A stretch of DNA of 44,180 nucleotides from Atractiella rhizophila. Lineage: Eukaryota. Within the stretch, counting starts at the first letter, position 1. Each line of letters opens with the position of its first letter. The stretch lies in NCBI GenBank assembly GCA_021432655.1, contig MU271184.1, positions 248,001-292,180 on the forward strand, in the 5' to 3' direction. Under the pieces are notes generated by a model. It searched no databases, had not been told where the DNA came from, and saw only the letters and a list, made by a program, of their open reading frames with translations. The position numbers and the translations under genes are program-made. Positions 395 to 34,100 of this stretch are shown here, piece by piece.

Positions 395-838
395 CAACTG
401 CTCGTACTCCTCATGCGTCAATGACAGCGTCATAAGAGGTGAATGGAAAGGCATCTTGCTCAACAGCACGAAATCAGCAGCAATGGAGAAGAGACATCCA
501 AAGACAACGGGGCAGGAGAGATTGTGATTAGAAAGATCGTTATGATTATAAAGCTCGTTGCTATTTCTTCTGGTCACCACTTGGATCACTGAGGGACCCC
601 AAGCGGGGGGTGCGGTAGCAAGTCGGGCAAGTATTCAAGTATAAAATTAGTTAGAATATATTATTATTATTAGTTTATTCTTAATGGTGCGTGGAGCCTC
701 TCCATTTGGCGGTTGTTTTGAATGGCCATCGTTCCCACATCTTCGCGGGCGTTAATTTTGGTGTGGTTGTTCCGTCCAGCGGAGAGTACCCGAGGCGTGC
801 CCACTTTCAACAGACCCCACATTTCGCGAAGTCGTCTC

Positions 839-1072
839 TGTTGAACCTGAGGTTCATCAGAAAGACAGGAAGAGGAAAAGATGAGTATTGCATGTGAGCG
901 TGTGATAGGATGCTTACCTGAGGTTCATCAGAAAGACAGGAAGAGGAAAAGATGAACCTCAGGTAATGCGAACGAGACTAAACTACAGTAGCGGACGGAA
1001 CAGTCAGACGCGGAATGCGTAAGATGAACGGGAAACCAAAAACGAAAAGAGAAAAACAACCAAGCTTCAACA
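839..1072 (-). mobile_element. Solo LTR, 234 bp, with 5-bp TSD
   Basis: Termini TGTTGAA...TTCAACA (perfect 7-bp inverted repeat). TSD GTCTC at 834-838 and 1073-1077. Confidence 0.9.
847..917 (-). other. Putative 71-nt spliceosomal intron inside the solo LTR
   Basis: Minus strand reads CAG|GTAAGC...pyrimidine tract...CTGAT...CTCAG|GT. Its last 38 nt (847-884) duplicate the upstream 918-955. A perfect 16-bp hairpin (914-929/951-966) covers the donor. Confidence 0.65.
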
Positions 1073-1209
1073 GTCTCCATGCCTTCCCGCTTCCTAAAAC
1101 GAATGTGGTAGCAAGACAGCGAATCTTGATTATTCTTAGGGGAACGAAGAGGACTCCGTCCAGCTCCATTCTTTGTTCTGGAATTCCGCTCTTCCTATTT
1201 GGTCAAGGT

Positions 1210-2112
1210 ACCCGCCCCTCCAGTCTCTTCCGGCAAACACCACCGCTCCTTAGCACGACACTTATCATCCGAACAGACCTTCGAAATGCTAAAGGAAATG
1301 CCACGAGCACAGGCATCGATCTTCGTCCAACTGCGATCTGGTCACATCCCTAACAACAACTACCTGCATCGAATAGGGATTGCGGAAGAACCGAACTGCG
1401 ACTCCTGCGGCATGAGGGATATGGTCACCCACCTCTTTTTTGAATGTGAGGAGCATGAGGAAGAAAGAAGAAAACTTAGAAGGAGACTCGCGAAAAAGGA
1501 TGTTCGTTTCAGATCCCTGGGCGACCTGCTGAGCGAACCGGAGGCGACGCAGGCGGTATGGGAATTTATTAGACGGAGCGGGAAATTCAAGTTATGGATC
1601 ACAAGGGCGCAGAGGGTTTTGGATAGAAGAAAGGCAAAAAGGAAACAAACGGCGGAGGCAAGAGGAGAAAAGGATGACAGCAGGGAGGATTGGGAAGATT
1701 AAAGACAACAAGTTACGTCCAGATTTTTCACTTCCGAACTGAGGCACCTTTTGCAGGAACCCAACGTACGACGGAGGTCGGAACTCATTTCACCTACACA
1801 CGGGTCCCCAAGGAGGAACACAATCTGCCATTCAGCATCTTCTAAGCATAATTTACCTCACACAAATAGCCATCGCGATTCAGTAACCCCCCACTCGGTC
1901 TTACTTCCACCAGTACCATAACATTATAAGGGGATTGTTGGGGGCCTTTTTCTTTACACATTACATGCATACTTCGCTTAGTTAACCCATTCATGGCCAA
2001 TTTCACCTCGTAAACCGTGTTTCTTTTCAATAATGTGATATCCCCCAGAATGTAGAGCTACGTTGACTATAGTCTGACAGCTCTGAAATATGATCACAAC
2101 AACAACAACAAA
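1210..2112 (+). mobile_element. 5'-truncated non-LTR retrotransposon (Tad1-like LINE)
   Basis: ORF 1199-1702 carries the LINE ORF2 C-terminal motif LRSGH..YLHRIG..CDSC..HLFFEC. (CAA)n tail at ~2098-2112. TSD TTTGGTCAAGGT at 1198-1209 and 2115-2126. Confidence 0.9.
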
Positions 2113-4839
2113 TCTTTGGTCAAGGTTAAGGTCGGAAACATCGACCTCCATAACTTTATCTTGTCAGGTAAGTATTATTTCCTAGAGAACAGGTAGTAAT
2201 GGAAAATGTGGCAAGTTGGGGGGCATTGAATTGGAACTTTTACTGAGGGATTAGAGCTCTGGCAGTATTTCTCGCTTGGTGGTCAATAGGTGGGCCGTTC
2301 GATCACAGCATTCTTGTCAGGCCCAGTTTGACAATAATCTAGATTCGGGCTACTAAAGGAATTCTAAAGCTGCTACACCAGTTGCGCCGTGAATCAGAAA
2401 TATAAAGGCTCTTCGATGTAAACATTGCTTTTCCTCGTCACAGCTGCCTGCAACAAAGAAGACGACATGTCACCTCCTGCCCCCACAGCTCCAGAACAAC
2501 CAGACCTCGCCCTCCAAAGTGCAGCCATCGAGGACATCCTCTTTACTAAACGTACCTACCTAACCGGTTTGCGCTTTCTACCTTTTGCACATGAACGACA
2601 TTCAACTGGAGGATGGCAGCTTGCTATGCATTCTACGGTTGGGATTTCATAGTTACTTTTCCTCAAGATTACAAGACAATGTGGAAAGCACAACGTTGGA
2701 CGCCAGTCCGAGCTGCCTTCTTCTTCAACCGGTAACTCTCTCCTCTCAACACTCACTGCGTACGTGGGAAGCTTATATGAGAATTATCAAGTTACTGGGG
2801 TATCTTGGACTGCATATTGGTCATGTGCCTTGCCTGGCTCAAAGTTGACCCGAAGACTTGTGACAAAATTTACCTTATCAAACCAGTTAGTGGTATTGCT
2901 GTCTTTTGTGTGTCCCCATTCGTGTCTCAAGAGAATCCCTGACGCATTGTAACCGCAGCGAGTTCCGAGTTCCTGCTTGCCGCAAGGGTATGGGCAATAT
3001 GGGCCCGTCGACGATGCTTGGTTCTTTGGTATATTTGCAGCAACCGGTTCCGCACTTAAGCTCTCTGAGTCGAGACTGTCACAGAAACCCTGCAGAATCC
3101 GATCTTAATAGAAAGCGGTTAACTTGGATGTCACCAGAAATTTCGGAGCCTTGTGACCTTGTCGACAATCGGCTCAGGTGTGTTCGCAAGTTAGACGGTT
3201 TTCAAACAGGCTGACAGTATAGAACTTATAGAACGCTAGTATATCTGCATGAACAACTGCTGGTGTGTCTTTGTCCTAAATATCGGATGTTAGAAAGACT
3301 TCGTTTGTGAATGCCTCCTTGGAGTATGACATTGTGCTTCATGGGATAAAACCCTGTACCCCGTACCCCTATACCGTTTGGTTACCCCCGGGGGCTAGAT
3401 CGATTTATTTCCGCACTCTTTCCCTCATCCGACTGGTTCATGGTTCAGAACCAGGCGCTCCATATTTTGTTTCTTCACCTTGCTGGATCCGACAGGTCTT
3501 ACAGAGTGTTTGGGGATGGCAAGGTGCTTTTACACCTCATTTACCTCATTTTGAACGTTAGCTACGCATGAGATCTGATTCTTGACAGCTCTTAGCATCC
3601 GATGGGCTCATCAAGTCTCCGCGATGGAGGAAGGAAGGAGAGAAGCCGAGGTTACTCCGGGTTGACTATTGGAGCAAACTGCCGAAAGGTGCGATCCTTG
3701 GTTTTGGTTTTGGTTAGGGTTATTGTCATTGGAAGAGGTGTCGTAGCGTAGTCACCGGAAGTCACGTTGTTGTCTGTGCTCATGTTCTCCCTGTGAGTGT
3801 TGAGTGTTATTGCTATTGCATGGCACGCTTGCGTCGCGCCGTTGGCGTCGTTTCCTCCTTAAGAAGGGAACTTGTCATAAACGTTATCTGTACGCAAAAA
3901 CAGTCCAACGAACCCTGGGTGTGTTGTCTATATTTTGCTACACCCTTCTCAATTTCGATGCTATGTTTTCAAAATCCAGCGCAAATGGTCAGGCAATACC
4001 GTGACTCACATTAGAGTGAATGACCCATGAACGACGTTGGCTGAGATTTGCACAGGCTTGCCGCGCTGTAGTTAGAATGAAGCCGGTGTTGAAATCCCAG
4101 CTGTTCTACACGGAGACGTTGCTGAATAGCGGTTGTCCAGCTTCCGAGCGGTCGCCTTCGTTGTCCGATGCCGGCGCCAGACGCCACTCAGGCAACATGG
4201 CTTCAGTTTAGAGCTGCGGTTTGCGGTCGTAGTCGCTTTGTATGGGCTCTCGATACTCATTCAGGAGCCGTTTAACCCTTATAGCTCTCTAAGGCACTCC
4301 AAAGTCTCTCCGCAGTTCTGTCCAACGTACCATATTCTGATGCTCAGGCTTTCCTAGAGCGTTCCAATTCACTTGGCAGGAATGTGAAACAAGCGGCCGA
4401 CAAGGAGGCACCGAGATCCTCGAACGGAACCGCAAAGTCGGGACTAAGTGGACTTCTAGCAGAAACAGTCCAAAAATAATCCTGCAGAGGCAAGAAGCCT
4501 ACGTCTCAAATGACATCATATCATTCCTTATCACGCCGAATATGAACGATGACAGTCTAGCCTGTTTGAATTCAGCGGAAGGACCCCTCAGACGGGGAGG
4601 GCTGTTTCACACCGATTTACTGGTTCGTCTCATTAGACGCCAGCAGGTCTAGCCTTCAATCATCCTGCACATTTTGTGGATCCCATTGGAACCGTGTTGT
4701 TGTCACCTTCAACTCCAATTGGCGAACCTTTGGCCCTGGGTACAAGTTCACTGTCGATCAAATACTCGCATGAGTCGCATATACCTAACCAACCACTCCT
4801 TATCCCTTATCCTTTCACTGCCTCATGTTTTTCATTGCC

Positions 4840-6478
4840 ATGATGAAGACGTATGCAACCTTTCTTGGATTTGCTCTCCCATTCGTAGCACAAGCCGCCT
4901 TGAGTGATGCTGGTACGTTGTTGTCCTTCGAATGTGGCAATCCGCCAATGAATAATAATGCACAGATGTTGCTTCCGTCTTCCCCGATTCACGAAACAAC
5001 CTCTCGACGTTGACCAGCGCAGCTGTTCGATTTCGGCAGTACGCTGCTTCGTTTGTCGCAAACTCATCGCACATTCTAAGTAGTTCTTCCAAATTGTTCT
5101 TGATATCGGGACCTGAACTAAGGACAGTCACCCTGAATAAAACTGATGCTACTTGGGACCTTGTTGGATGGATGGGCCATGGCATCGGTTCGCTCCGGAC
5201 TATTCTCACGGGAGCCCACTTCTGATGTGGAGACAGGAACTGGAATGAGCAATGGGATTTGTTTGCCATTTGGCCAAACGCCGACTACACCTGGACGATT
5301 TCACATCACGAACCAGCCCAACATGTCCTTCCGTCCCCAATCACTCCTTCCGCTGGTTTGTACAGTGTTATCCATGCGCTCTCAACCAATTCAACTTCTG
5401 GGACTCCTTGGACCGCCGTTTCCTTCATTCGCCCCCCTCTCTTTCGCAAATGTTGCGAGCTACGGTACCACTTCCAGCCAGGGCACGATTGAGAGAGCGA
5501 CCGGCCAGGTTCTGCTCTACTCTTATGGTTCACAAAATCCGGGGTAAATGGTGATCTCCAAGAACACTCCGATCAAGGGACTGCATCAGTAGAATTGTCG
5601 AAATCCTATATTCCTGCATCTACGGGAAATGACAGTGGAGGAGGTTCTGACGGATCCGGAGGCTCTGGCATTGGCCGGAGTAATCAACCTCAAGAAGCCA
5701 CCTCCGCTGGCTGGACTCGCCACAGCAAGCTAATAGCTGCTCACGGTCCGTTGCTTCTGTCCATCCATTGACTTCTCTCGGGCTCACCCATGAGACAGCT
5801 GCTTTCGGAGGCGTGGCTTTCATGATCATTTCTCCAGCAGCCATTTTGTTCGGACGGTACTTCCGGTCTCAGAAGTGGTTGCCCGCCCATCGAGCTCTCC
5901 AGATCGTCACGGTGTCTTTTATGCTCATTGCTTTCGCGTTGGCTGGAACAGCTACAGGTAATAACCCGAAGCATACGCATCACGTGAGTCTCCTGTAATA
6001 TTTAATGATATGATTGATTTGAACTGAGGCTCTGAGCAGAAAATCGGTTATGCCATGTTCGTGATCACGTTGTTGCAAGGCATGGTTGGTCTGATTGCCC
6101 ATCACATCAAATCCCCACCTAGGTCAAATCGCAGTCCTCTTCGTTGACGCATGTAATCGTTGGTATCGGTTTGGGTTATTCTCAAGTGCGAACCGGGATG
6201 CAGGAATGGGAGGATGAGGCATCATCAGGCATGTCTTCTCCGGACGGTGTGAGAATCGTCTACTACACCCTTTGGATGTGGAGGTTGCTGCTTATCTCAT
6301 CGGCATCTTCCTCTCTCCCACCCCGTACTTTCCTTGGAAGAGCGCTGAAGACTGTGCAGCAGAAGCAAGAGATGGAGAACAAAGCCTGAGAATTCTCCTT
6401 TCCTTTTTGCAGCCGTTTAAGCATTTTTTTTTGTGGAAACGGGTGTTAGTGCTGGTGTATAGTAATGTTTTGAGCTAA
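4840..6478 (+). pseudogene. Signal peptide + DOMON (CBD9-like) + cytochrome b561 membrane protein; multi-exon, frameshifted
   Basis: Signal peptide MKTYATFLGFALPFVAQA. DOMON-like GWMGHGIG/TGMSN..DLFAIWPNAD..WTISHH. b561-like helices with His: LIAAH, WLPAHRALQ, HTHHKIG, LTHVIVG. Several GT-AG introns. Frameshifts near 5255, 5435, 5543, 6143 and 6272. Confidence 0.75.
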
Positions 6479-7129
6479 ATCAAAATACACATTTCGCCAG
6501 CAGGCACATGTCATAGGGGGTCACTGTCAACAAAGGCTTGTGGCTTAGAGTAACTTATGAGCCCGGAAAGCTGTTAGCTAATTCATGTAGATCGGAGAGT
6601 AGTCGAACGATCTGTTGGATCGAAAGTGTCAAGGAAGAGGGGAGCATTGTAAGCTTGGGAGACGGCAGGAAAGGTAGACCATTCACGGCACAGGCAAGTC
6701 ATCCGTCTCTTTCAGAAGGCCATAATCTCAACAGCAAGCATATAGATGACAAGAGTGATCATCATGCCGTCCCTCTGAAGCCCTGATTTTACCTCTTATT
6801 TAGCACCACAATCATCCACTCAGATATCGATACTCCTTCTCAAGCCGAAAGACTAGGGTTTGTGCTCATCAGTGCAGATGTGATATCTGGTCAGGTTTCA
6901 GAAAAGGGGGGAGTGTTGTGTGTGAACCCCAGACGATGACACTCAAATAGGTGTTTGTTCCTAGATTCTTGATGTATGACATTTCCTCATAACCCATGAC
7001 AGCCCTACTAATCACAGCCAACTGACACAGCACCAACCGATATGTTCGCTGGCACTCTATCCTTTTCTGTCGCTAATGGTGGCTACTCAGTCTACATTCT
7101 GCTTGTCAGAACCACGCTTTATTAGGGTA

Positions 7130-7391
7130 GACAAGTGTGTCAGAGGCCTTCGTCCCTCAGGCCCCCCAACCCACTCGCAAGGGGCATGGCCCCTTGAACC
7201 CTACTGTGACTCTTGTGAGGGTTCGAGTCCAGTATGCAACACATTTTTCTACCCCTTTCAGAATAAAATTTCCTCGCGCATTCAGAAAGGCGCAAGCATG
7301 TTCAGTAAGATGGTGTAATTCATTTCGTTTCAATGTGCCTGCTGAAGGTGGTATGAACGCTCAAAAGTGCGTTTTATGACTCATGCCAAGA
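7130..7391 (+). repeat. Partial copy of the 5' half of the solo LTR at 41618-42155
   Basis: GACAAGTGTGTC...CTCATGCCAAGA aligns with the reverse complement of ~41895-42154. Confidence 0.85.
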
Positions 7392-7824
7392 ACGGATGGC
7401 TTTTAGAGGTAAGGATAAGGATAAGGATGCGCCTACACCAAGAGACAATTTATCTTTTGAGGAGCAAACAGGGATAAGGGTCGCACCAAATGGTTGTGTA
7501 AGGACTGTTCTCATGGATAGGGAGATGAATGGTGAGTCTTAGAGCCATAGGTTACCGCAAGGAATGATGAACCATTGCGACAGACGGTAATCGATTCGTT
7601 CGTAAAAAATTGGAGTCGAGAGGAAATAATTCACATAATCGATGATGAAACATGTTTTTACCCTACGCCTCATGTAGTCAATACTTATTTCGAATGATCT
7701 CTGCGCTACACACCTGCAGGACCCCTTGCCGGCGGCGACCCTCTATCAATTGTATGTGGCAGAACACCAGCTATTGAACAGCAGCAATGCGTTTCACCAT
7801 ATACTCGCCATATACATCACCTCC

Positions 7825-8078
7825 TGACAAAATCGTGCGCCTCCTCCTTTCGCCACTTGCGCACTTGCGCGTTTCCACTTTCGTCGAGCGTGTTCTGGAA
7901 CTGTGGCAACTTCTCTTTCGCCACAGGGACCTTAGCTATAAAACCCTTTCACCTGCAAGTGCGAGACTCACACTTATTTGTTATCTCGCACTTCGCAGGT
8001 AATGTAGTTCCCTTACATACTAAATGCAACACACACTTATTTGTTATCTCGCACTTCGCAGCGCTTGCAAATTTGTCA
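7825..8078 (+). mobile_element. Solo LTR, 254 bp, with 5-bp TSD
   Basis: Termini TGACAAA...TTTGTCA (7-bp inverted repeat). TSD CCTCC at 7820-7824 and 8079-8083. TATAAAA at 7937-7943. Confidence 0.9.
7999..8061 (+). other. Putative 63-nt spliceosomal intron inside the solo LTR
   Basis: CAG|GTAATG...TACTAAA...CGCAG. The last 30 nt (8032-8061) are identical to the upstream 7969-7998. Antisense arm 7951-7966 pairs with 7984-8000. Confidence 0.6.
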
Positions 8079-8194
8079 CCTCCTTCCGTGTAAAGCACCT
8101 TTGCCTCTTCAAACACCTTCAGAGCATTCTCATTCTGCCCACATCGAAAATCAATCTTCCCAATGTCCGTGGACACAATTGGCTCCCTGTGAAC

Positions 8195-8375
8195 AGTCCA
8201 GGCCAGTTTTTTTTGAACACTGGTTTTAGTGCCGGTAATTTACCTGGGTAAGGCTGGTAAAAATGAACCAATACCGGGCGAGAAAGCGGGAACGTCGAGC
8301 CTGGTTTTTTACTGGTGAGTAAACAGGTTTTTTTAGCTGTTTTTTACTGGGGAAGCCAGTATTCAATGATTCGCA
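8195..8375. repeat. Cluster of short CTGGT(T/A)n / CCAGT motifs; possible DNA-transposon subterminal region
   Basis: Repeated ctggtttt/ctggtaaaa/ccagtttt motifs in both orientations, abutting the truncated TPR fragment. Confidence 0.3.
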
Positions 8376-8630
8376 TTTCTGCAGGCAAAACCACTGCGAC
8401 GACACCCCGAGTTCAATCAGGATCAAGTAGTACACGCAGCTCGGTGAGTAGTTGTTCCTTGGAGCAGAAATGCCAGGCTGAACTAACTGCTGCATGCTGA
8501 TCTCGCGAGCCAGGTGGACGAGCTGATACGAATCGCTAGCCGTTCCCAATGTTTGTCGCGATTTCTCTACTTATCAGGCCTCAAAACATGCTGAATAGAG
8601 AATTTTACAGGTCTAAGAAGCGCTTTCCGC

Positions 8631-9815
8631 CTTCTCGCTCTCGAAAAACAAACCAGTTCGGTGTCTGACCAGCCTTCGACGACACGAATGCTTTTGGTAA
8701 TCGTGAAGTTGTTGAGTGAAAGGAGAGACTGGAATGAACTGAAGGAGCAGGTTCAGGCGTTGAGTAAGAAGCATGGACAACTTAGGGAGAGCACAAAGAA
8801 GATGGTTGGAGCGGTGATGGAGGTTTGGGAGGCGGGAAAGGCAGAGGAGGATGAGAGAGAGGGACTGACGGTCTGTCTGAGGGATGTTACGGAAGGAAAG
8901 GTTCGCTTTTCCCTATTCTTCTTATACTTACATTACGCACTGAGGAGCTGATTTCGGATTGATATGATAACAGATCTTCCTAGAACTTGAACGAGCTCGT
9001 CTCACTCGCCGACTCTCTGCGATGCTCGAACCAAAGGGAGAGGTGGCAGATGCGTAACGGATCATCCAAGAAAACGCAATTGAGACTTTCGGCGCCTTTG
9101 GCAGGAGAGAGAAGACGGCCTTCATCTTGGGGCAGATTTAGATTCTTGAAGCTCCGTTGCTAACAGGCTTCTCCGAAACCGCGACACCCCAAGGCATCTC
9201 CATCGACTTCCAATGAGCCATCGCGTAGCCATGACCAGGAGAAGCGACGAGTACTTAGGAGAACTATACAAGTTGATTGGAGAAGAAGGATTGACGCTGG
9301 TTGCCTGCATGATAAATACGATCCACTATCCCGGTGTGTCCTCTCTTGCTCAAGTTTAACCGGCCGGTTCCATCCTAAACTACGTGGGGGGCAGCGCTGC
9401 ACTTTCTCATTTCACAAATCTCTTCCAACGCCTCGATACCTTAACACTGCACCTATCCATCATCCACCCGTCTCCCCGTTCGCTTCCTCTTCCACCTCTT
9501 TCTCCACAAAGAGCTTCGTTCGAATGGTTCAACCTACCGAGAAGATTGTCTGTGCACTGGCCATGCTGTTCTCCACCTCAACTTTGTCGTTCTTGAATCT
9601 CGATTCGACTTTGATAGACTCTGAAGCTTAGCCGCTAGGTCAGATGGAAACAGCACAGGGAGCAGGATGATTGTTGGAGTATTGTGATAAGTCAGTATCC
9701 CTTCTTTTAAGCCTTATCTCACAATGAGCATGACCTCTTCGAATTCTAGCCGGATAACCTCACGCAGCGACGGACTGGGGGGAAACGGAGCGAGCTTGCT
9801 AAGGAGATAAGACAA
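8631..9815 (+). pseudogene. RPN5: 26S proteasome lid subunit Rpn5/PSMD12 relic
   Basis: LLALEKQT..SD..STTR..LSKKHGQL..LRDVTEGK, intron 8901-8973, then IFLELERARLTR..ETFG..RREKTAFIL. Premature TAA at 9055. Only scattered degenerate C-terminal traces (RIT..ETE..DKT) to ~9815, so the end is uncertain. Confidence 0.85.
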
Positions 9816-10888: not shown

Positions 10889-10999
10889 ATGTGGAAGAAA
10901 GGCTAGATTACACAGTTGGAAGGGAACGATCGCTCAATGTTCATGTGGAAGAAAGGCTAGAGTACACAGTTGGAAGGGAACGATCTCGCTCAATGTTCA
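10889..10999. repeat. Tandem duplication, 2 x ~54 bp
   Basis: ATGTGGAAGAAAGGCTAGA...CTCAATGTTC starts at 10889 and 10943; one substitution and a 2-nt indel. Confidence 0.95.
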
Positions 11000-11449: not shown

Positions 11450-14400
11450 ACCTTTGCACACAGCGGTTACAGAGGAGGTTTTAAAACGGGACTTAGCCAT
11501 GAACAGTTACCTCCAGGTTCTTCCAAAACCAACAAACCAAACCTTTCAAGGGATTTATGCCGGTTCATCGACTTCATCAAGGATGCCCACGACACCTCAT
11601 GCCTCCGTGCGGTTTCCATCAGTTCGGCAGCCTGGTTCGATGACTGGCCAATCTGGCTACGTGTAGCCATTAAATGCCAAAAGATCCACCAAAGCAATCC
11701 GAGATGTCATTTTTTGTTCCCCAGATCAGGTACACATTCAATATGTTCCAGAGCGGGAACAATGGATGCTTCTTGAAGTCGAAAGCAAGTTGAGGAGCCA
11801 CGCACCACCCGTAACTCACGCACATGCACGGAAGCCCTTTCGTACAAAGTTCGAGAACCACTCCTCAAACAAGCCATCCGCACCTACCACAGCCAGTCCC
11901 CACCCCATCGATCGCGAGCAAGAAAAGATGAGTATGTCTGGTGCCTGTACAACGGTCACAAATACAATGACTGCTACTCCACCAGAACCATTTCTGAAGC
12001 TGGAGGAAAGAACCTGGCTGCTGAAGGTCAGGGACAAGGGAAGCTCATTGTTGAAGGAAGTAGTGATAGGATACTTCTTCCATCAACTGCATTCTGGATG
12101 CAAATGGGGAGACCGTGGCAGCGCCAGCAAGCACACCTGCAGCGCTTGTGACAAGCCAGACTGCAGGGTCTGCTTTAGCCTCATGTTCTTTCAATTCAGC
12201 TAACATACCTTCACAGGCAACTAGTGCTCCACCAACCCGTTGAAGTCCCACTCCCCAGCATCCTTGAGCCTATGATCAAAATCGCCTATTCCAATGACCC
12301 TTTACAACAAATCATTACAACGTACAATGCAACGCAGACATATTCGAATACTACATCAACCGCTTCGGCCTTCACGACTTGTATCTCAACTCCGAAATTC
12401 ACATCCCTAACTGGATCCACAATGGCTTCCCACCTCGCATTGCCAACACAAACTTTGTTAAATTCACCCCCCGAACACTTCTACCCTTCACACCTCCAAA
12501 GCAAAGAAAGCCTTCGTATGCAGTTGGTGCCAGGAGGAACGTCTGCTGAACCGTCTCCTCGGCCCATTCACAGTGTCAACCCTGAACACAGTCTTCGATG
12601 GAGTCTGGAGGACTAGCCCAATCTCCATAGTCAACAAGGCAGGAGCACCTGGCGAGTTCCGCCTCGTTGTCGATTTCTCCCGGAAACCCCACTCTCAAAA
12701 CGTCCCCCCTCTCAAGTCAATTAATGACGATATCGACACTACCTTCTTCAGCAACAGGTGGGATGGTTTCCCTACCATGCGGCGCTTACTTCTCTCAGTT
12801 CCACAAGACACCGAGGTTATGACTCTGGACGTCAAAGCTGCCTTCAGGACTTTTTCAACTAGCCCGGATTCAAGGTGCTATTTCGTTTTCCAGGACTTCG
12901 AAGGTCAGTTCTGGGTAGATACGGTGGCCTCCTTTGGTTGTGCTTCTTGCCCCGGCAATTACGGGCTCTTGAATGACTGCTGGATCAACTTCGTCTCCTC
13001 GCTCTTCTGGATTGCCATTCACTGGGTCGACGACAACCTGTTCTTCAGATCTCGCTCTACCTCTCAGTGGTACAATCTGAGGGATGTCCGGAATATCCTA
13101 GAAGAGCTAGGTGTTCACATTAACAGAAAGAAGGCCTTTGATTTCTCTCATACGTTCAAGTACATTGGTTTCACTTGGAGCTTCGTCGACCGTTCCGTGT
13201 CCCTTCCCCACCTGAAACTCCTCAAAGCCGTCACCCTCCTAGAACTCTGGCTCGTCCCCGCCTTTGGTTCGATGCAAGCATAGACTGGGGAATCAGCACA
13301 GCGATCCAAGGTTATTGGTCCGTCTGGAAGTAGAAGTCTAGCTTGTCACGCTTGGACAAGGAGATAGGCTTTGACGAGATGCTGGCTTGTGAGCTGGGGA
13401 TTTATCTTCTCCATCACTTATTTTCCACGCTGCCCTCTAAATTCAATGTCCCCTCATCACACCGCGGTTCCATCATCCTTCACGCCGACAACACAGGTGT
13501 CCGGTTTATCCTTGACAAAGGTTGGACTTCCAACGTCAACTCCAATTCATCTCTGAAGCGCATTTATGCCGTCTGCCAACAGCTACGAACTCTCTTCGCG
13601 TTGGCTAGCCTCCGGACTGACTCACTGTCACACGGCAATTTCTAATCCTTCGACCCTTTATTATTCTCCCCATTTCCCCCCACCACAGATCTCCAACTTA
13701 GTATTGTATTTCTGCAGCTATCCACACCTCTTATGTAGGGTTTCTTCCTCAGAACCCAGTTTCGAACCCTTTATCTAATAGTTTTCCATGGATACTTCCT
13801 TACCCTTTACTTATAGTTATAGGGCTCTCCCCTATACCCTTCCTTCCTTCTCCTAATGAGTAGCCCTAATTTCATCGATTTGGCAAATCTGCAGCGGCTG
13901 TGTTTTTTTCTCAGGCGCAGTTAGAGCCAGCCTCATACCAAATCCAGTCCTCTATCCCCCCTCTTTCTTTGCTCACACCTTTATCCTCCATGGGGCGGTC
14001 CACACTCATGATTCCCTATGTTCATAAGTCTTCTACTTCATGGCACCACAGCCTGAAAGGTGTCTCCAAGACAAACACTCCTTCACACGGACAACCTCAC
14101 TCTGAGTACCTCAGCAGCTCAGCCTGCATTGCGATTTCGGGTTTCTCTACCACACTCAGAAAACTGCACGCTTTCGAAGCAGAACACTCCAACTTGCGAG
14201 CTAAGGAAGCCTTTAACCCAGACATCTCAACGTCTCTTACAATGGACTGGCGCCTCCACTCCAGACGTGGACCGCCTCACCATCAACAAGGTCATACGGT
14301 GTATTCAGAGGGTCGTAACTGCTGCTGAATATGCCCCTGGCACCCTGGACTCCTACTCCTCTGCTATCCCGAAGTATTTGGAGTTGTGTGACAAGTCTGC

Positions 14401-14650
14401 AATCCCGTACTCCCACCGGTTCCCTGCCTCCCCCAACTCATCTCCAGTTTCTTACTCTGGTGCTCCGGTCCCATGGATGGATGGCATTCCTAAAGCCATA
14501 GCCCCTTCTTGGACCGTCACAGGCAACACTGCTTCACGATATGTCTCTGGCATCAAAGCATGGCACATCTTCCATGGATACCCCTGGATTGGGATCACAG
14601 GCCTGATGAGCTGAAGATCTGATGCAAAGGAATAGCCAGACTCCAGGGTA
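11450..14650 (+). mobile_element. DIRS/Ngaro-type retrotransposon, 5' part (gag-like, RT, RNase H, YR N-terminus), degenerate
   Basis: RT 12573-13283: SPISIVNK..FRLVVDFS..DVKAAFR..FGCASCPG..HWVDD. RNase H (DNTGV) 13343-13645. YR N-terminus TLDSYSSAI..YVSGIKAWH at ~14330-14650. Confidence 0.88.
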
Positions 14651-17300
14651 CAGTCAGACCCCTAAACATGCAGGCCCTCAGTGGACCACCTAAGCTTGCA
14701 TATAAAGGGTGCTTGCGTATGAGCAGGGGCACCAAAAAAGGGGACTTGTGGCTGGAATATCATCGGAAAACATCGGATATCACAAGTATGTATGTTATAT
14801 AGTGTTTGGAATCAACTGGAACCACAAAGCAAAACTTAATGTCATTTAAACAGATCAAGCCATCCATTTGACAATGAGAGCCTTTTGCTTCAGGAATCGC
14901 CCTAAGTGTTGCAAATATTCTCCATTTCTCATACAGAACTGTGTCAGTGAGGATGATGCCATGGTGAAGCTCCTGCTTGACCCATTGGATGAGTGCTGCC
15001 TCGACCTCTGGATAGTGACGATGTGTCGTTTTTTCGTGGCCAAGTTCTCAGATTTGTCTGCTTCTTTCCGAATTTTGTGCTTGTCTTTGAAGTATTGAGA
15101 CAGAGTTGCTGCACTGAGAGTATTGAAACCATTCTTCCTCCAAATTCATTCCCTTATTCTTCTCAGCATAGTCTCTTCAAAAGTCATGTTGCCAAACGGA
15201 AGTCCTCCAAGGAACACTCACCAAAAGGTCTACTGCTTTCTATTCCAAGGTATGTTAAATAAGTATTCTAGCATATATGAGACACATGCAATTGCAGAAG
15301 CTCGTCCTCAGGCACCTAGGATATCCAGGTGAGCTGAGAGAGGATATTTGGCAATTTGCATCTGCACCTGATGTGCTGAAAATGTTTGTGAGTGCCTGTG
15401 TCTTTGAGCAGAGCTGGTATGAGCAGAGTATGGAGATGAGTCTGGTGTAGGCAGTTGAGGCGCGTGATCTCGGCTGTAGGCCGATGCAGAGGGGGGAGGG
15501 AAACGAGTGCGGCGTGCAGGGGGTATTGGTCTAAACGAAGCAGCAGAAGCCAGGAATTGTTGAGGAGAAAGCGCCTGAGGTGGGGTAGATGACGTTCTTG
15601 ATGTTGTTGCGGATGTTGTACACTCTCGTACTTTTAGGCGAGATGATGGGGTTCCACTAGAACTGGACGGACCTGTAAACAAAGCGCCTACAATCAATTA
15701 AGTACCTTCTTCAATTCCCTCCATAGACTCTCGACCTTCTTCTACAATTGGCCAAAGCTGTGAACCTGAACTTGGCACCGAAGAAGAATCTGTTGCATTC
15801 ATTCGCTGGTCACTTGTCACAGGGCTCGCATTATTCTCCTGGCGATGACAAAGTTGTTCCTGCTATTGAAGAAGTAGGCCTCTAACTAAATTAGTAAGCT
15901 CTTCGACCTGATGACTGAGACGTTGATTGTCGTTAAGAAGGCGACGGTTCTCTAACTCAGTAGGTTCAAGTGGGGAGGAGGCAAATGTTGAAACTATAAT
16001 GCCGTGAGCTTGTACCGACTTGGAGGAATAAAGGCTACGAACTATCAGCGACAGGAGTGAGCTTTCCCAGAGGTTAAGGAAACATCAACACTGCCATATG
16101 ATGCTAAGAAATTAGAATGTGTATGCTAAGACAAAACTGTGGATGCAACGTAATGCGCAGCCAACTATTTTTCTTGTAGGTGAAATGGAAGTTCGGCAAC
16201 TGGTGCTGATCCCACACATGATGAGGCATACGGAGCTTTACAAAGGTACCTGCCTTCTTGAACATTAATTTGTAGAGCAATCTGATCTTCTTGTCGCTGT
16301 ATCATTGGGTTGCTCTCATTCAAGGCTAAAGTTCTAATGTAAGCTGAGCAAGAAGGATGATGTGCACCCACACATTATGACATCTTCAGTGCTCTGCTCA
16401 GCAGAAATAGGAACGATAGAGTTATTGCTTAGGACTGCATCTGGAAGATATATATGAGACTGAGTCTCAAAACTCACAGCTGGAAACCCTACCATGCAGG
16501 TTCTCTGCCCTCTTCCCCTTCCTGACTGACCGGCATACAGAGCCTGCTCTGGAGGAGGAAACACTCATTACTGAAACTGCGATGATTGAGCATCAACTGA
16601 AAGCTCTTGCAAGACGGAACAATGACGTTAGCGTAGTGGAAAAAAATGAGAGTAAGCTCTGCTCACCGTGAAGCACAGGAGCAGCAACATTAGATCCAAG
16701 CTCTTCATTGACACCCTGCCCAAAAGTAAATTCGGCTCCTTCAAGAGCACGAATTGGCCAAGAAACGGTGATGGTCAAGTTATGGGTGCATCGAGGAGGA
16801 TGAGGAGGATCTGGAATCTGCTCAAGATCTTCTCCTTCAAGCACTTCCGTTTTAACCCTCTTCATAGCACACCGATCTGGTCCCAGAGAGCTGGCTGACT
16901 CTGGAATCTCGTGACACATCTGCATGCAAATGTTACTGCACGTAAATCATCCGACATAGGCGCACACTACGAAGTGAGCTTCAAGTCTTTCTGGATGGAA
17001 TGATCGAGGTGGTTGTACTCTCTGCTGATTGGCTTCTTCTCTCCTCTTCTTCGTCACTTTCAGAATGTTCAACTAACGATGTTCACTGGCTTTAGTGCTG
17101 TTCTGAAAGGCCAAATGACCATACCATTTGGAGTGGATGGCTCAGCCATCCTCCAAGGTTGTCTTCTCATGGAAATTGTAATTGTGCTTTCTGCGACATT
17201 GCTCTACCTTGCATTCAGGGCAAGATGGAGATAGCACATTCTTATACCTTCAGAATTTGCTGACAGGCTGATAGGAAGGCAACAAAACATCTAGATTTAA
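14651..17300 (-). mobile_element. Pogo/Tigger-like (CENP-B HTH) DNA transposon, 3' part; DDE domain missing
   Basis: TA|CAGTCAGAC terminus at 14651. Minus strand ~14830-15120 gives EVEAALIQWVKQE..ILTDTVLYEKW..LSNGWLDLFK (Tc5/CENP-B HTH). Inner boundary uncertain. Confidence 0.7.
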
Positions 17301-21899: not shown

Positions 21900-24800
21900 C
21901 CAGCTACATTAGCCGACTCGGAATCGAGTACGGAATCAAACGAAAGCCTACCAAGAATCAGAACAAGGCAACAGGCGAGATTCCGTCAGCTACCACCGAC
22001 CCCTTTCGCCACTGGCAGCGTCAGACCGAGCAGTGCACGGGGACAAAGGAATACCAACTGTAACCGAAGAACAGAGACAGTTGGCACAAGGATATGAACT
22101 GCTGCAAAAGGATCCTTGAGAGGCGACAACGGAACAACAGTCAGAGCGCTAAAAAAGTGGACAAGAGGGAAGTTGTTTCACATTAGTATTGAAGTTGGAA
22201 CAGCTTGGAAAGGACCACTGGAAGGTCACATCAACACGTGCGATCATAGACAAAGAGGCGACCAGAAGTTTGATGAGCAAGGACTTCTATCTAAAGAACC
22301 AAAGAAACCTGCCCCCCTTCTTCTGTCAGACAGTTCGCTGATAACTGGGAATGGATCAGTAGCTCTACCAATTGGCAGGATAACGACTCGATCAGCAGTT
22401 ATCAACGACCCACAACTAGCCGAGGCCCAGTTCGAGATCCTGGACGCAGGGTGAGCGTTTGATGTACTCCTCAGCAAAGGATGGAAAGAAGACATGGAAG
22501 CGATTCACTTCTACAAATGGGACGTCATATGCTTCATGCCAACGGATGACAGCAAGACTTGGAAATGTTATAGGAACGAAACGATTGGATCAACTCAACC
22601 GCCTTGGAACCTTCCATCAAACCCCCTCGACATCGTTAAATTACTCACCTCCGGAACCATATTCTACTTCAACACCACCACCAACCATGACACCAATTTA
22701 TCCTCACAATTCAAAATTATCGACAACTCTCACGAAATAGATGAAGAAATATTTGTGCTAGAGCAGTACAAGAAAATCCTGGATTACCGTCCCCACCCAG
22801 GTGCCCGTTGGATCGACGCTAGGGGACGTGTAGAGCACCGATTCGACAGGCAAGGCCAAGGGGAGGGAGCGGTGGCCAGCTCAGCCGTTGAAAAATACTG
22901 CTCCTTTTTCGCTCCTGGCGAAAAGCATGAGCATGATCCTTACTATTCACACCAGCACAATGCTAAACCCTCCTATACATTCTGAGAGAAGGATCACGTG
23001 CCGCTCCAAAGCTTGATAGCCAGCTTGAAGGACAACCTTTGAAGGCTAAAACATCCTGGAGTTAACCCTCCAGCCCCAGGTACCCGTTGGGTCAATGCTA
23101 GGGGAGGAGGATAGCGATTTTGACTCAGTGGGCACATGACCGGGGTGGAGTGGAGGCTAGCCCAGCCATTGGCTCTGTAAAGCTTGCGTTATGCAGTGCT
23201 CCGGTCTTACGATCTCCACACTTCGCTTCAGATTCAGAATTCGTTGCCCAATCAGGGGCATGTCGGCATGGGTTCGCAACTACACTCAGCCAACGATTCG
23301 ACGATGGCATCATCTACCCAGTCGGATATGCATCCCGAAAGACAACACCCAGCGAATCGCTCTATTCAGCCCCACTGCTTGAACTTGCAGGTCTCAAATA
23401 TAGCTTAGACTATTGGAGAGACCTGACCCTGGGATTCCCAATTGATGTCAAAACCGATTGTCGCTCACTCCTAACCATACTCAAAAATGAGAAGCTGAGT
23501 CCTGCGCATGGAGTGATGGAGGGAATGTCTATTCACCCACAACATCCGCTGCATTGAACATGTCTTAGGTAGTGTGAACTATTGCTGCAATATGATGTCT
23601 GCAGCACCTGTGGGAGAAGCTGGGAAGGTGACATGGGAATCATGGATGGAGATAGAAGGGTTAAAGGACGAGTCGTTCCAAGAAGCACTGGGGGGGAAGC
23701 AATGGGTGATGATGGTTAAGGAGGATCCGGAGGTAAAGGAGTTGCTCAAGAGATTTGAAGGAGATGAGGTATTCGAGGGAATCCTTCACCTGATCCTATT
23801 CCTCTCACTCAAGGACGGAACTCCCAAACATCTGAAAGAAGTCATCCGTCAACAAGCAACCTCCTATGTCTACCGAAAAGGGGAACTCCTGTTCGTCCAG
23901 AGGAGAAGGGAATACAAATGCGTTCCAAGAAGAGAAGTAAAAAATCTCATCATTTCAGCACATGAACAACAATGCCAGCAGGACGGGATCTAACCCTCTG
24001 GCACATCAAACAGAAGCACTACTGGCCAACAATGCAGGCTGATGTCACAGAATATGTCCTTTCATGCCCATTGTGCCAACGCTTCGGTCCATCAAGCCGA
24101 AACTTCCTCCTCCAACCGATACTCAAACTCGCTCCACTCTCCCTTGTCTCTTTCAATGTCCTCACACTCCCAGAGTGCAAAAAAGTACGTATGTTTGGGA
24201 AACCAGTCTGCAAGGTAGCGATAGCCTGCGATCACTTCACTGGATTTCGATGGGCAGTAATGTTGTCGAACGAGAAAGCTGAGCTTGGGGTACGCATCTT
24301 CAACAAACTCATAAACCATGCCGGCCCTTGCAATGTTCGATGGAGGTGGAACCTTCAACAACGAGGAACTGAAAGCGAGAATCAAGGAAGTTGGGACGAT
24401 TGCACATTTCACACCGGCTCTGCAACCATCGACGAATGGATTTCTGGAGAACAAAAACCACACTACCTCGAGCGATGCAGGAAAAATGCACCTGCAGGGG
24501 AAACGGACACGAGCAGCACTTGGGCCCTCAGGTTGGACGAAGACATAAACTCCCTCAACCGAGACAAGATTAAAAGCCATGGCTTCATGCCCACGGAGCT
24601 ACTCCATGGATGGAACCCATCGGACCGGCGCATGCTTACGTCCGAGGACGTGAGGGACTTGGTGGAAGGCGACAAGGAACCGACAAGAAAGGAGATTGAG
24701 GTATATCTAGGACAATTGGAGGCAAAAAGAGAACAAGCATTCATTAACAGGGACAAGTATACGGCAAAAATGAAGGAGAATTTCGATAAACATGCGAACC

Positions 24801-25057
24801 TGGTCAACTTCAAGGTGAATGACCTCGTCATGGTGATGGACAGCACTATTCGCACGCAACACTCACGAAAACTCGAAGCCAGGTGGTTTGGACCGTTCAA
24901 AATCGTCGGGAAAAGAGGAAACATCGATGGAGAAGAATCAGCAAATGCACAGTCCTGGATTTTGGAAACATTAACCGGAGTGAGAATAGGTGGATACTTC
25001 CACAACCAATGCCTTAAACGCTTTCATGCGAGGGATCCTAAAGCGGAAGGGATTTAG
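21900..25057 (+). mobile_element. Ty3/Gypsy LTR retrotransposon remnant (RNase H + integrase; no RT)
   Basis: RNase H: YPVGYASRKT..ELAGLKYSL..TDCRSL (23120-23557). Integrase: H..HYWPTM..CPLCQ, DHFT, and GPY/F motif KLEARWFGPFKIV (23972-25057). Frameshifted. Confidence 0.9.
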
Positions 25058-30522: not shown

Positions 30523-30983
30523 ACATCCAAAGCATGTTCAGGGCCATCTCTCTTCAGCCCAACCTGTCACTCTCAAGCCAAAGTATTGCCATCCCACGAA
30601 TCTTGACAAACTGGCGTTTATAGACTATGCTGAGAAGAATAAGGGAAGGCTCAATTGTTGTGAGAGGGAGTGATGCTGTGTGATGGTGAGGTTGCGAGAC
30701 AGCTTAGGATGCTGTGCACAAAGGCACTGAAGGAGTTTTCAAGCGAAAGTTCGTGAAGGAGTCTCGGGTACAGACCACCTTGGATTCTTTCGCGCAGAAC
30801 AAGTGAGCACAGTACTACAGTTGATTCCAAACACCATATAACATACATACTTGTGATATCCGATGTTTTCCAACAATATCCTGCCACAAGTCCCCTTTTG
30901 CGTGCTCCTGCTCGTATGCAAGCACCCTTTATATGCAAGCTTAGGTGCTCCGCCGAGGGCCTGCATGTTTAGGGGTCTGACTG
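30523..30983 (+). mobile_element. Internally deleted second copy of the pogo-like element
   Basis: 30523-30623 matches 20253-20353; 30622-30647 matches rc(15149-15174); 30818-30983 matches rc(14651-14818). Encodes a pogo-like C-terminus QTTLDSFAQNK*. Confidence 0.8.
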
Positions 30984-31137
30984 TTGTCCCCAAAGTCTTG
31001 CTCGATGCACGGAAGGGTTATGTGTGCTCTGCTGCCCAGCACATTCATGCAGCTTTGCCTGCGGAAGGTCTGTTTAACCATGTCGGAGAAGACACAGTCT
31101 TTCAGGATGAATCTGAAGACTCTATGTTGTCATGCTA

Positions 31138-34100
31138 TGGTGCAGGTCCGCTAGTCCCACATCAGAGGCTACAGCATGAGTCACCATGACTCACAGGTCC
31201 CAAATCCCAGAAAATTTTTCCTGTCATCCTGCTTCTGAGGTTCTGGCTCCTCACATGCATATGTGTGAGCTGCCCACAGTGAAATGCATTAATGTATTCA
31301 CACTGTTCATAGTATTAAATGGAAACCCTAGTATATGTACAAACCCTCAAGCCTGAACCGGCTCCCCTGTTGCAGCAGCTACTTCTGGAACACGTCGGTG
31401 TGATGAATACTTGCGCACTTGAAATCCAGCTTGCATGACATCCTTGCCCTCGGCATAAGCTTGGATCCATCTGTGAGTTCTTCTCTCAAACTTTCTGATA
31501 GTGGACAGTTGCACAGACTTGAGAGCCACATGCATGTTCTCCTTCAATCCTTCAAAGGTGTACCGGCAGTTTTCTGTTGAAGTAATCAGTAACTTGTCAA
31601 CATCCAGAGAAGCTGCAAACCTCTAAGGTAGTACTTCATTCTTCCCCAAAAAAACTCAATGAAATTAAGCTCACAATGAAACTTCGGAAGCATTAAGGCA
31701 TAGTGCCCAGCTGCTTCAATTGCTTCGACCACTGCTCCTTTTTGGGCACGGAAGTCAGGCTGTGATGCAAGTAAACGCTCTGTGCCATGAAATGAGTATT
31801 GGATGGTGGAATGTAAGATGTTACTCACCAGCACAACATGTATGGTCTGCTTGATGGTCGGTTGCTTGCTTGCATCGACCTTTCAGACCCTTCTCCGGCC
31901 ACAAGCCTCGTTCCTTCAACACCAGCTCCATTCCCTTCGGTTTTCCAGCGTCAGGGTGACCGGGGGGGCATATCATTGACTGTCCAATCCTCTGCCCATC
32001 CCTCATGAACCATCCATCCCGCATAATCCGAGCATTTTTCCCACCTGGACTGGATATTAACAATGAATGCCACAGAGGAAGAGGAGTGGCCTATCAGGTC
32101 TCAAATTCATATCAGATGCTCTCAGTGCATCTGCTGCAAAATGATTATGACCTTGGGAATTATCAATCGACACCAGCACCCTTTGATTGGGATGGAGCCG
32201 TTCAAAAACAGGAATAAACTTTTCCGTAACCTATATACAATTTTAGTGAAGTTCTGATAGTCTCCCATGACGTACCTGCTTAAGCATTTTCTCTCCAGTC
32301 CAGAACCCTTCATGGTTCTTACCATACTCCAACTGTTCTCCACACTCTTCCAACCAACCGTATGTTGAGCAAATAAAATCTGAACGATGTATCCCTCGGC
32401 CCTGCCCCTTCTTCCGTAGCTTTGCTTGACCATCCAGAATCCAGCAGTGTTTCTTTCCGTCATTGGCAGTACACGTCGACTCATCATGCGCGACAAGGAC
32501 GATAGGCTGAGTTTCGGGGGGCAGTGGTTTCTTCACTTCAAGGTTAACGTCCTCAGAAGACCATTCGCGCAGTCGAGGCAGGAAGCTTTGGAAGGTTGGT
32601 ACGAAAACCTTCTGACGATATTCAACAACATCAGGTCGCTCATGGCCACTGCTCAACTCCAATCAGCACATTATGCATATGTGAAAGTAATGATGTACTC
32701 ATAATATAGTCCCTTTTTATATTCTGTCCATCGAAACCCTTCACGCCGCAACCATTTCCTTGCAGTACGTAACGAAATCCCCCGTTTCGGTTTCCACCCA
32801 GCATTGGGAAAGAAAGTCTCCTCCAGATAGCCCTTCAGCCTCATTGGCATGTCAGTGTGCAACTCCTCTTTCACTGATTTCTCAAGTTGAGATGGAATCA
32901 ATACATTCTGAGAATAGGCCGCCAATTTGGCTGGATCCATGTTCTCCTTTTCCTGCCGAACCCAAGCTCTCAGCATCTCACAATGCTCTGGATCATTCAA
33001 CAAAGAGAAGGTTTTCGCATGTCGGCCTTGCAGATCATCAGCTTGCAATGTCCAAAGGTTAGCACAGGAAGACAGACCACGGTTAGACATAGGGAGTGCT
33101 CCTTGCTCAGTTTCAAACCGGTCCGCCCAGCTTCGGATGTTCTTCGCTCCGTAAGACATCCCGAAACGATGAGCTGCAGCTGCTGTCTGCGATGCCTTGA
33201 GACGGGTATACCTGCCAGTCTTCATGAGGTTGAAGAAGCACTCCAATGCTCGAACTCGACGTGCTTGGAGCTCAGTCTCGAATTTCTGTTTCTTGAGCAA
33301 CCTCTCTGCCATCTCCGCGCCTGTTGCATACCGCCCCAGCCGTGCTTGGTGCCGCTCAAACGCTTCGCTTTGCACATATCGCTGTCGTTGTCTCTTGCGT
33401 GGGGGAGGGAGAGAGGGATCAGAAGGGGAGGCAGGGCCGGTGTTGCAGTGTCCGAAAGGTGGTTTCTGTGGTCGTCTCTCGTCGGAATCAGTTTCATCGT
33501 CATCAGGTGACTCTTCATTCTCCTCGGCTGATGAAATGATAAACGTCTGAATATTGAATGGATCATCGAGAGGAGAAGGAGGTGAGGTTGCAAGGGTAGG
33601 TGCTGTACTATGCTGGCCATCGTCTTCGTGAGCCACTGGGACGTCACGAGTGGTATGGGGAATGGAGTAAGGCGGTGGAAGAGGCCGGTTGTTGATGAGG
33701 AAGGCTTTGAGCGGGTAGCATGTCTTTGCTTCCCTGAAAAACCAATCAGTGCCAGCTTCAGTGCTAAAAGAGATTGAGAAAGGAGAGGGGAAAATAAAAA
33801 TACAAACTGTTCCAGCAATTCTTGCTTTTTCTTACGGTTATGGCGGGTTTGCTTTGGCACCTTCGTACCAATGTTGTATCCTGAAGAGCGTCCCAATGCC
33901 TTTTCTCCCTTCTTCTGATTCAACTCTCGCCCTCCCTCAGACATCAACTCAGCAAAAATGCCCGGAAGTTGTGCTTTAGCTTCTGCAATGAGTATCTGTC
34001 CTTCAGCAGTTTCAGGAGCAAGCTCATTGGCACTCTCTTCTGATGCAGATTCACCCTCAGAGTCAGAACTTTGCTCTGATGAAGCCCAACTTGCATCATC

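Follow-up and report, generated by a model that had tools for sequence, protein, structure and literature searches.

Retroelements are expected to lose introns, being copied from processed RNA, and those known to keep an intron either use unspliced RNA as the template or, like Penelope, retain it in a manner that is not understood. The whole stretch of DNA analysed here (44,180 nt, henceforth the window) carries at positions 839–1072 an element with the marks of an LTR, in the last third of which, read on the minus strand, an interval resembling a short spliceosomal intron ends in a copy of the sequence that precedes it. This arrangement raises the question of whether an LTR can hold an intron that survives reverse transcription, or whether it reflects a repeat that is never spliced at all.

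The window is eukaryotic, has a G+C content of about 44–52% and is full of transposon remains, which lie at 1130–1699 (+), 12462–13280 (+), 23102–25054 (+), 14763–15047 (-) and 31589–31882 (-). The types represented are the zf-RVT tail belonging to a non-LTR element, which adjoins the 839–1072 element, RVT_1, RNase H plus an integrase zinc finger (gypsy-type pol), a Tc5 HTH and a weakly matching DDE_3 transposase. Three pairs of segments are repeated in inverted orientation with 83–91% identity (1–394 versus 41301–42241; 7130–7398 versus 41888–42154; 14650–14818 versus 30818–30984) and are presumably copies of other repeat families. The sole conserved host-type gene piece in the window, at 8496–9138 (+), is 84–87% identical to two proteins attributed by their source to Atractiella rhizophila, a root-associated basidiomycete. 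It is a truncated PSMD12/RPN5-like (proteasome lid subunit) pseudogene: of the ~480–498-aa homologues, only residues 10–182 align with it, it contains an in-frame stop, and its splice sites have decayed.

Evidence for a solo LTR at positions 839–1072

The element and its flanks comprise the following features.

834–838, no strand: left copy of the target-site duplication GTCTC (direct reading; matches 1073–1077)
839–1072, sense strand probably minus: apparent 234-bp solo LTR with the ends TGTTGAA..TTCAACA (direct reading)
1073–1077, no strand: right copy of the target-site duplication GTCTC (direct reading)

The sequence-only reading had called this element an LTR with the target-site duplication GTCTC, and both parts of the call hold. 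The termini form a 7-bp inverted repeat (TGTTGAA at 839–845, TTCAACA at 1066–1072) with TG..CA ends, and GTCTC stands on both sides, a 5-bp duplication falling within the 4–6 bp by which LTRs are recognized. TG..CA ends together with a 5-bp duplication are an established LTR signature. Moreover, one contig from another organism parts from the window exactly at the predicted boundary: its match ends at 1072 and its next 180 letters are unlike the window, the opposite LTR boundary being outside the contig. These observations support the assignment of positions 839–1072 to a solo LTR of an LTR retrotransposon.

One could instead consider a MITE, that is, a small non-autonomous DNA transposon, here bounded by 7-bp terminal inverted repeats and flanked by a target duplication of 5 bp. 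The element does possess both, and no full-length retroelement with an end of the 839–1072 type was seen within the window. We nevertheless regard a MITE as very improbable, given the LTR signature described above, inverted termini of merely 7 bp and the existence of a sister element of the same layout that carries a TATA box and the same type of end (see below).

Searches for relatives of the LTR returned little. Blastn revealed no second copy within the 44,180-nt window, neither a complete element nor a PBS or PPT came to light there, exact-pattern scans of metagenome contigs and viral contigs for the LTR gave 0 matches, and neither this LTR nor its sister was matched when 500–8500 was searched with cmscan against Rfam 15 (E<=1). 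The sole cmscan match in this region is snoR118 at 6006–6097, which is sub-threshold (22.8 bits as compared to a gathering score of 44).

As to orientation, direct reading agrees with the earlier remark that this LTR has no clear TATA, and it revealed no other orientation signal either. A purine-rich flank at 1072 in the contig from another organism (9 of the 10 nearest bases, minus strand) was considered as a PPT clue to orientation and dropped, the window's own random flank being purine-rich as well. We infer that minus is the sense strand, on account of the splice signals and of the analogy to the second, TATA-bearing LTR.

A 40-nt repeat, a hairpin and an intron-like interval

Read on the minus strand, the LTR contains the following features.

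951–966, minus strand: upstream hairpin arm TTACCTGAGGTTCATC, which complements the donor region and whose final 5 nt double as the first 5 nt of X1 (inverted-repeat search; paired in MFE and centroid folds)
916–955, minus strand: X1, first copy of the 40-nt repeat and putative first exon, ending ..CTGATGAACCTCAG|GT (direct-repeat search, 100%)
914–929, minus strand: downstream hairpin arm GATGAACCTCAGGTAA, over the donor CAG|GTAA (inverted-repeat search)
847–917, minus strand: 71-nt intron-like interval GTAAGC...CTGATGAACCTCAG (intron-criteria scan)
845–884, minus strand: X2, second copy of the 40-nt repeat, comprising the 3' end of the interval and the first 2 nt beyond it (direct-repeat search)
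856–860, minus strand: CTGAT branch-like motif, its A 10 nt ahead of the acceptor G (direct reading)
839–846, minus strand: last 8 nt of the LTR, GTTCAACA, past the acceptor; putative part of a second exon and U5 remnant (direct reading)

Thus, the arm TTACCTGAGGTTCATC is followed by a 21-nt pyrimidine loop, the second arm GATGAACCTCAG|GTAA, a 31-nt unrelated spacer, the repeat copy ending CTGATGAACCTCAG, the 8 nt GTTCAACA and the LTR end. The sequence-only reading had described an exact 40-bp direct repeat, a perfect 16-bp hairpin over the donor, a CTGAT motif and an acceptor 8 nt from the LTR end, and each of these was recovered. The two repeat copies are identical at 40 of 40 positions with a spacing of 71, and the hairpin arms (914–929 and 951–966) are 100% complementary, are separated by 21 nt and cover CAG|GTAAGC. 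In addition, the upstream arm is complementary over 14 nt to the second repeat copy (845–858). The donor reads CAG (920–918)|GTAAGC (917–912), and the acceptor AG lies at 848–847.

The GT..AG interval 917–847 equals one repeat period, and its tail is a copy of the 38 nt preceding the donor. The earlier note had pointed to this match between the period of 71 and the interval 847–917. The equality is true, but it is no independent coincidence and adds no independent information, since donor and acceptor occupy the same place in both copies. The last 32 nt of the interval are 81% pyrimidine. Judged by its sequence, the interval has the donor, branch, pyrimidine tract, acceptor and host-like length of a spliceosomal intron, and we refer to it as a putative intron. 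The one usable host calibrator within the window, an intron remnant of gene origin at 8911–8973 that belongs to a pseudogene with decayed splice sites, is 63 nt long and likewise carries CTGAT.

It may be, though, that nothing here is ever spliced. In this case the 40-nt repeat would be a duplication that arose by RT template switching or strand-transfer slippage or, with plus as the sense strand, a repeat of the U3 enhancer type; the hairpin would serve the LTR as a structural element or a protein-binding site, and the motifs that resemble splice signals would be by-products of a purine/pyrimidine-rich repeat. We hold this explanation to be unlikely rather than remote, and several observations speak for it. 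Neither a TATA box nor any other orientation signal is present in this LTR. Retroviral U3 enhancer repeats are direct, tens of bases long, with a period near 70, and form contiguous tandem units upstream of the promoter. A pair of direct repeats close to one end of an LTR could be of this kind. In the plus orientation the repeats take up LTR positions 7–46 and 78–117, and U3 repeats are common at such positions in retroviral LTRs. Furthermore, the plus strand also has a donor-like CAG|GTAATG at 960–968, which is forced by the symmetry of the hairpin because its arms are reverse complements. On the other hand, the X repeat differs from U3 enhancer repeats in that it is interrupted by the unrelated spacer and aligned to the splice signals, and in the sister LTR it lies downstream of the TATA box. 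The U3 version is further weakened by the lack of a plausible acceptor on the plus strand: the sequence downstream of 963 is purine-rich, and the intron scan detected no plus-strand intron-like segment there.

A second, unrelated LTR has the same layout

The second LTR of the window is composed as follows.

7825–8078, plus strand: unrelated 254-bp apparent solo LTR, TGACAAA..TTTGTCA (direct reading)
7820–7824 and 8079–8083: target duplication CCTCC of this LTR (direct reading)
7937–7943, plus strand: TATA box TATAAAA
7949–7965, plus strand: arm
7966/7969–7998, plus strand: X1
Plus strand: donor CAG|GTAATG
7999–8061, plus strand: 63-nt intron-like interval GTAATG.., ending in X2 (8029–8061)
Distance from acceptor to LTR end: 17 nt in this LTR, 8 nt in 839–1072

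That this element is an insertion is confirmed by a DNA contig of the best-matching run, in which a joint 7816->8076 skips 259 bases (254 + 5) and thus represents the empty site. In the best DNA run, the summed word depth is very high at 7825–8078. The LTR is located ~400 bases upstream of the PSMD12/RPN5-like pseudogene piece and on the same strand.

The TATA box upstream gives this LTR an orientation, and it matches that of its splice signals. Its X copies are identical at 32 of 33 positions, and X1 begins 29–33 nt past the first T of TATAAAA, a layout consistent with X making up the whole first exon between cap and donor.

The sequence-only reading had proposed that architecture rather than sequence is common to the two LTRs, and this was borne out: the geometry is the same, and blastn with a word size of 7 (E<=10) returned no match between them. 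The donor is placed at 66% of the length in 839–1072 and at 68% in 7825–8078, the interval spans 63–71 nt and ends 8–17 nt before the LTR end, and both have a donor-pairing arm and a repeat that stops at the exon/intron junction. It is a difficulty for the explanation without splicing that this junction-aligned layout returns in an LTR unrelated to the first, and one that has a TATA box upstream in the matching orientation.

The layout is not explained by chance

Short-range exact repeats, defined as at least 16 nt with a period of 25–250, occur three times in the 44,180 bases, and two of the three are the two LTR modules (the present one and 7966–8061). The third (10889–10985) is a plain tandem duplication with a 54-nt unit (a 43-nt, 98% identical core) and no AG|GT alignment, and serves as a negative control. 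The occurrence of such a duplication without splice signals in the same window is at the same time a point in favour of an origin without splicing. A scan of both strands for junction repeats (at least 12 nt before AG|GT recurring with at most one mismatch and ending 35–150 nt downstream) matched at the two LTR modules only; applied to 30 random 44-kb sequences, the same scan gave one match each in three of them (mean 0.1).

The strict intron criteria applied to both strands (88 kb) required AG|GT, no more than one mismatch to GTAAGT, a CTRAY within the final 40 nt, a pyrimidine share of 65% or more over the final 32 nt, YAG and a length of 45–120 nt. Four donors qualify, and the donor of 847–917 has the highest pyrimidine share (0.81). 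The other three, at 26826 and 38435/38499, look like those of gene introns of 56, 59 and 93 nt, one of them with the same GTAAGC hexamer. At 38435–38554 (+), two intron-like segments are adjacent, one of 59 nt (GTAAGC..CAG with CTGAC) and one of 56 nt (GTAGGT..TAG with GCTAAC); the five bases between them, AGGAG (38494–38498), are a possible 5-nt micro-exon, and a third short segment (GTGAGT..CAG) follows this pair at about 38591–38628.

Finally, 200,000 random X-spacer-X constructs were generated. An aligned donor with at most one mismatch to GTAAGT was present in 1.2% of them, and the complete set of features (donor plus YAG, CTRAY and at least 65% pyrimidines) in 0.006%. An origin without splicing would accordingly have to produce donor, tract, branch and acceptor by chance at a rate of about 6 in 100,000 such constructs. 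The layout of the modules is non-random, and chance does not explain it.

Predicted folding of the two LTRs

Folding of the 839–1072 LTR gave a z-score of -4.95, with none of 200 shuffles as stable, and the arm–donor pairing was present in both the MFE and the centroid structure; for the 7825–8078 LTR, the z-score was -4.71. The predicted mean unpaired probability of the donor in 839–1072 was 0.02 in the whole LTR versus 0.43 in an RNA beginning at X1. For the donor in 7825–8078, the corresponding values were 0.22 and 0.11, i.e. it is predicted to be paired in both contexts. Thus, folding supports a masking of the donor that would depend on RNA context for 839–1072 but not for 7825–8078, and this predicted contrast is not general.

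A proposed leader mini-intron that could be renewed by reverse transcription

The reading that we favour, although we would put it somewhat short of an even chance, is that the last third of the 839–1072 LTR is a leader mini-intron module able to survive reverse transcription. Its strand, transcription start, poly(A) site, splicing, strand transfer and renewal are those that we infer from the layout. Transcription from the 5' LTR would start around 955, close to where X1 begins, and splicing of the cap-proximal donor CAG|GTAAGC to the acceptor at X2's end (847) would remove 71 nt. Since the excised piece closes with a copy of the exon ahead of it, the 5' end of the spliced RNA would read X + GTTCAACA, which is letter for letter the end of the unspliced 3' LTR (X2 + GTTCAACA). 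With identical ends, minus-strand strong-stop DNA made from the spliced RNA could land on X2 at the 3' end, and from there copying would proceed back through the spacer, X1 and U3, such that an intron-bearing LTR is rebuilt. Annealing to X1 instead would yield an intron-less LTR, the predicted minority form. In the 3' copy, the arm would lock the donor in the 16-bp hairpin; this copy would stay unspliced, the donor would be hidden from U1 snRNP, and the RNA end could form. The arm would be present in the RNA only at the 3' copy because 11 of its 16 nt lie upstream of X1. For the model to work, polyadenylation would have to occur within or after X2, among the final bases of the LTR, and no recognizable poly(A) signal for such a site was found.

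A selective reason for an element to keep such an intron is conceivable in this host group: in basidiomycetes, removal of introns greatly lowers mRNA accumulation (PMC3744415). One may also speculate that X1 acts as a recursive splice site, with acceptor signals directly before the donor. Self-priming of the Tf1 type was considered and dropped, both hairpin arms being inside the LTR.

Extended to both LTRs, the model would mean that unrelated LTR families of this basidiomycete converged on a self-renewing leader intron: the intron tail would copy the first exon, the spliced RNA would keep its terminal redundancy together with a hairpin-protected 3' copy, and the intron would be rebuilt in each cycle. 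This wider claim, drawn from the layout of the two elements, is tentative and to us rather doubtful.

A real intron does not require a role of the repeat in renewal. The intron may be spliced in only part of the transcripts and be kept since unspliced RNA is the template for RT, with the X repeat as a historical by-product. Such a repeat could have arisen, for example, when cDNA made from spliced RNA switched to the end of an unspliced molecule and the CAG of the exon became a new acceptor, and donor and hairpin would then serve U1-dependent poly(A) control and intron-dependent expression. The splice-signal statistics are the same for this explanation as for the leader-intron model, and the stop of the repeat at the exon/intron junction in both LTRs is what one would expect if X2 was copied from spliced RNA. 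It leaves unexplained, however, why the copies are fully or nearly fully identical in two unrelated families (40/40 and 32/33), and intron-less copies should accumulate if most of the RNA is spliced, as is the case for Penelope. We consider an incidental repeat improbable.

Copies in other sequencing runs

Among the 24 run rows listed, 19 contain part of the 839–1072 LTR (13 studies), and 10 contain at least half of 17 sampled words; none of the 19 is recorded as RNA. In the best DNA run, the summed word depth over the LTR bin is ~29x that of the apparently unique segment 5298–6602, a ratio that gives no copy number. Four runs were compared with 600–8400; the one raw RNA run placed 0 of its 8,367,211 records on this region, an outcome that carries no weight for or against splicing.

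The two contigs from other organisms match 866–1072 with three other letters and 875–1072 with two other letters, respectively. The sequence-only reading had made its case depend on hairpin and repeat being present in further family copies. Both contigs indeed contain the hairpin, the full 916–955 copy, the 31-nt spacer and the first 10–19 nt of the second copy, so that this part of the claim is sustained as far as the contigs reach; neither of them extends to the acceptor end, where the second copy is completed. In one of them, 8 letters past 866 differ from the window. Moreover, both contigs pass unbroken through 916–955, which suggests that their X copies are not identical and that the second copy may be diverged. 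Identity is expected by the leader-intron model for freshly made copies only; divergent X copies thus weaken the argument from identity but do not decide it.

The sequence-only reading had also looked to a joint of 918 to 846. Lack of such a joint in DNA contigs was rejected as evidence: Logan contigs are, as we take it, built from 31-letter words, and with X being 40 nt long, an intron-less copy would make no new word of this length.

Comparison with known systems

Penelope of Drosophila virilis has a 75-bp intron 46 bp past the start site; most transcripts have it spliced out, and expression depends on it (PMC2377424). It resembles the module described here in having a short intron near the transcription start, comparable to the 71-nt interval after a putative first exon of ~40 nt in 839–1072. 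Penelope is not an LTR retrotransposon, though: it combines RT with GIY-YIG and replicates in another way, whereas 839–1072 is a solo LTR without coding sequence and its intron is putative. In addition, a repeat of the upstream exon inside the Penelope intron is not reported in the accessible text of PMC2377424. The TG..CA ends and the 5-bp duplication of 839–1072 point to an LTR element rather than to a Penelope-like element.

A second parallel is provided by foamy virus. Its R region contains the major splice donor, which precedes the poly(A) signal; U1 snRNP bound at the 5' copy suppresses polyadenylation, and a different RNA structure blocks U1 at the 3' copy and permits polyadenylation (PMC3694450). 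The donor of 839–1072 is likewise inside the LTR, and its arm could mask the 3' donor in the same way, since most of the arm is upstream of the putative start. Unlike the foamy virus donor, which splices to far-downstream acceptors outside the LTR, the donor of 839–1072 belongs to a complete GT..AG unit within one LTR. That known retroelements either have such an intron or use a donor in R (PMC2377424, PMC3694450) also counts in favour of a real intron with an incidental repeat.

In split-intron retroviral vectors (Ismail et al. [quoted passage not shown] As far as this summary goes, the vectors differ from 839–1072 in that they are engineered: their donor sits in the 3' LTR and their acceptor outside it, the intron is made once rather than renewed from spliced RNA, and no exon is repeated. 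In Tto1, engineered introns were lost in the cDNA (PMC3061985). A narrow phrase search of the open-access literature turned up no report of an LTR with an internal intron, which does not prove that none exists.

The module also recalls the tandem-duplication model of intron origin, in which an AGGT segment is duplicated, one AG|GT yields both splice sites, and splicing removes one period and restores the single-copy sequence. In 839–1072, too, the same AG|GT gives donor and acceptor. The repeat covers just 40 of the 71 nt and is thus not a simple tandem duplication, and in the setting of an LTR the second copy could have come about via reverse transcription.

Implications

If the leader-intron model is true, the puzzle of a retroelement that is spliced and yet retains its intron would have a simple solution: the intron lies inside the LTR, and the RNA ends stay redundant after its removal. 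An element residing in a host with intron-dependent expression would stay well expressed without ever losing its intron, and it would be the natural counterpart of the engineered split-intron vectors. It would also provide a concrete route to the birth of an intron, in which reverse transcription supplies the acceptor and the exon's own CAG becomes it.
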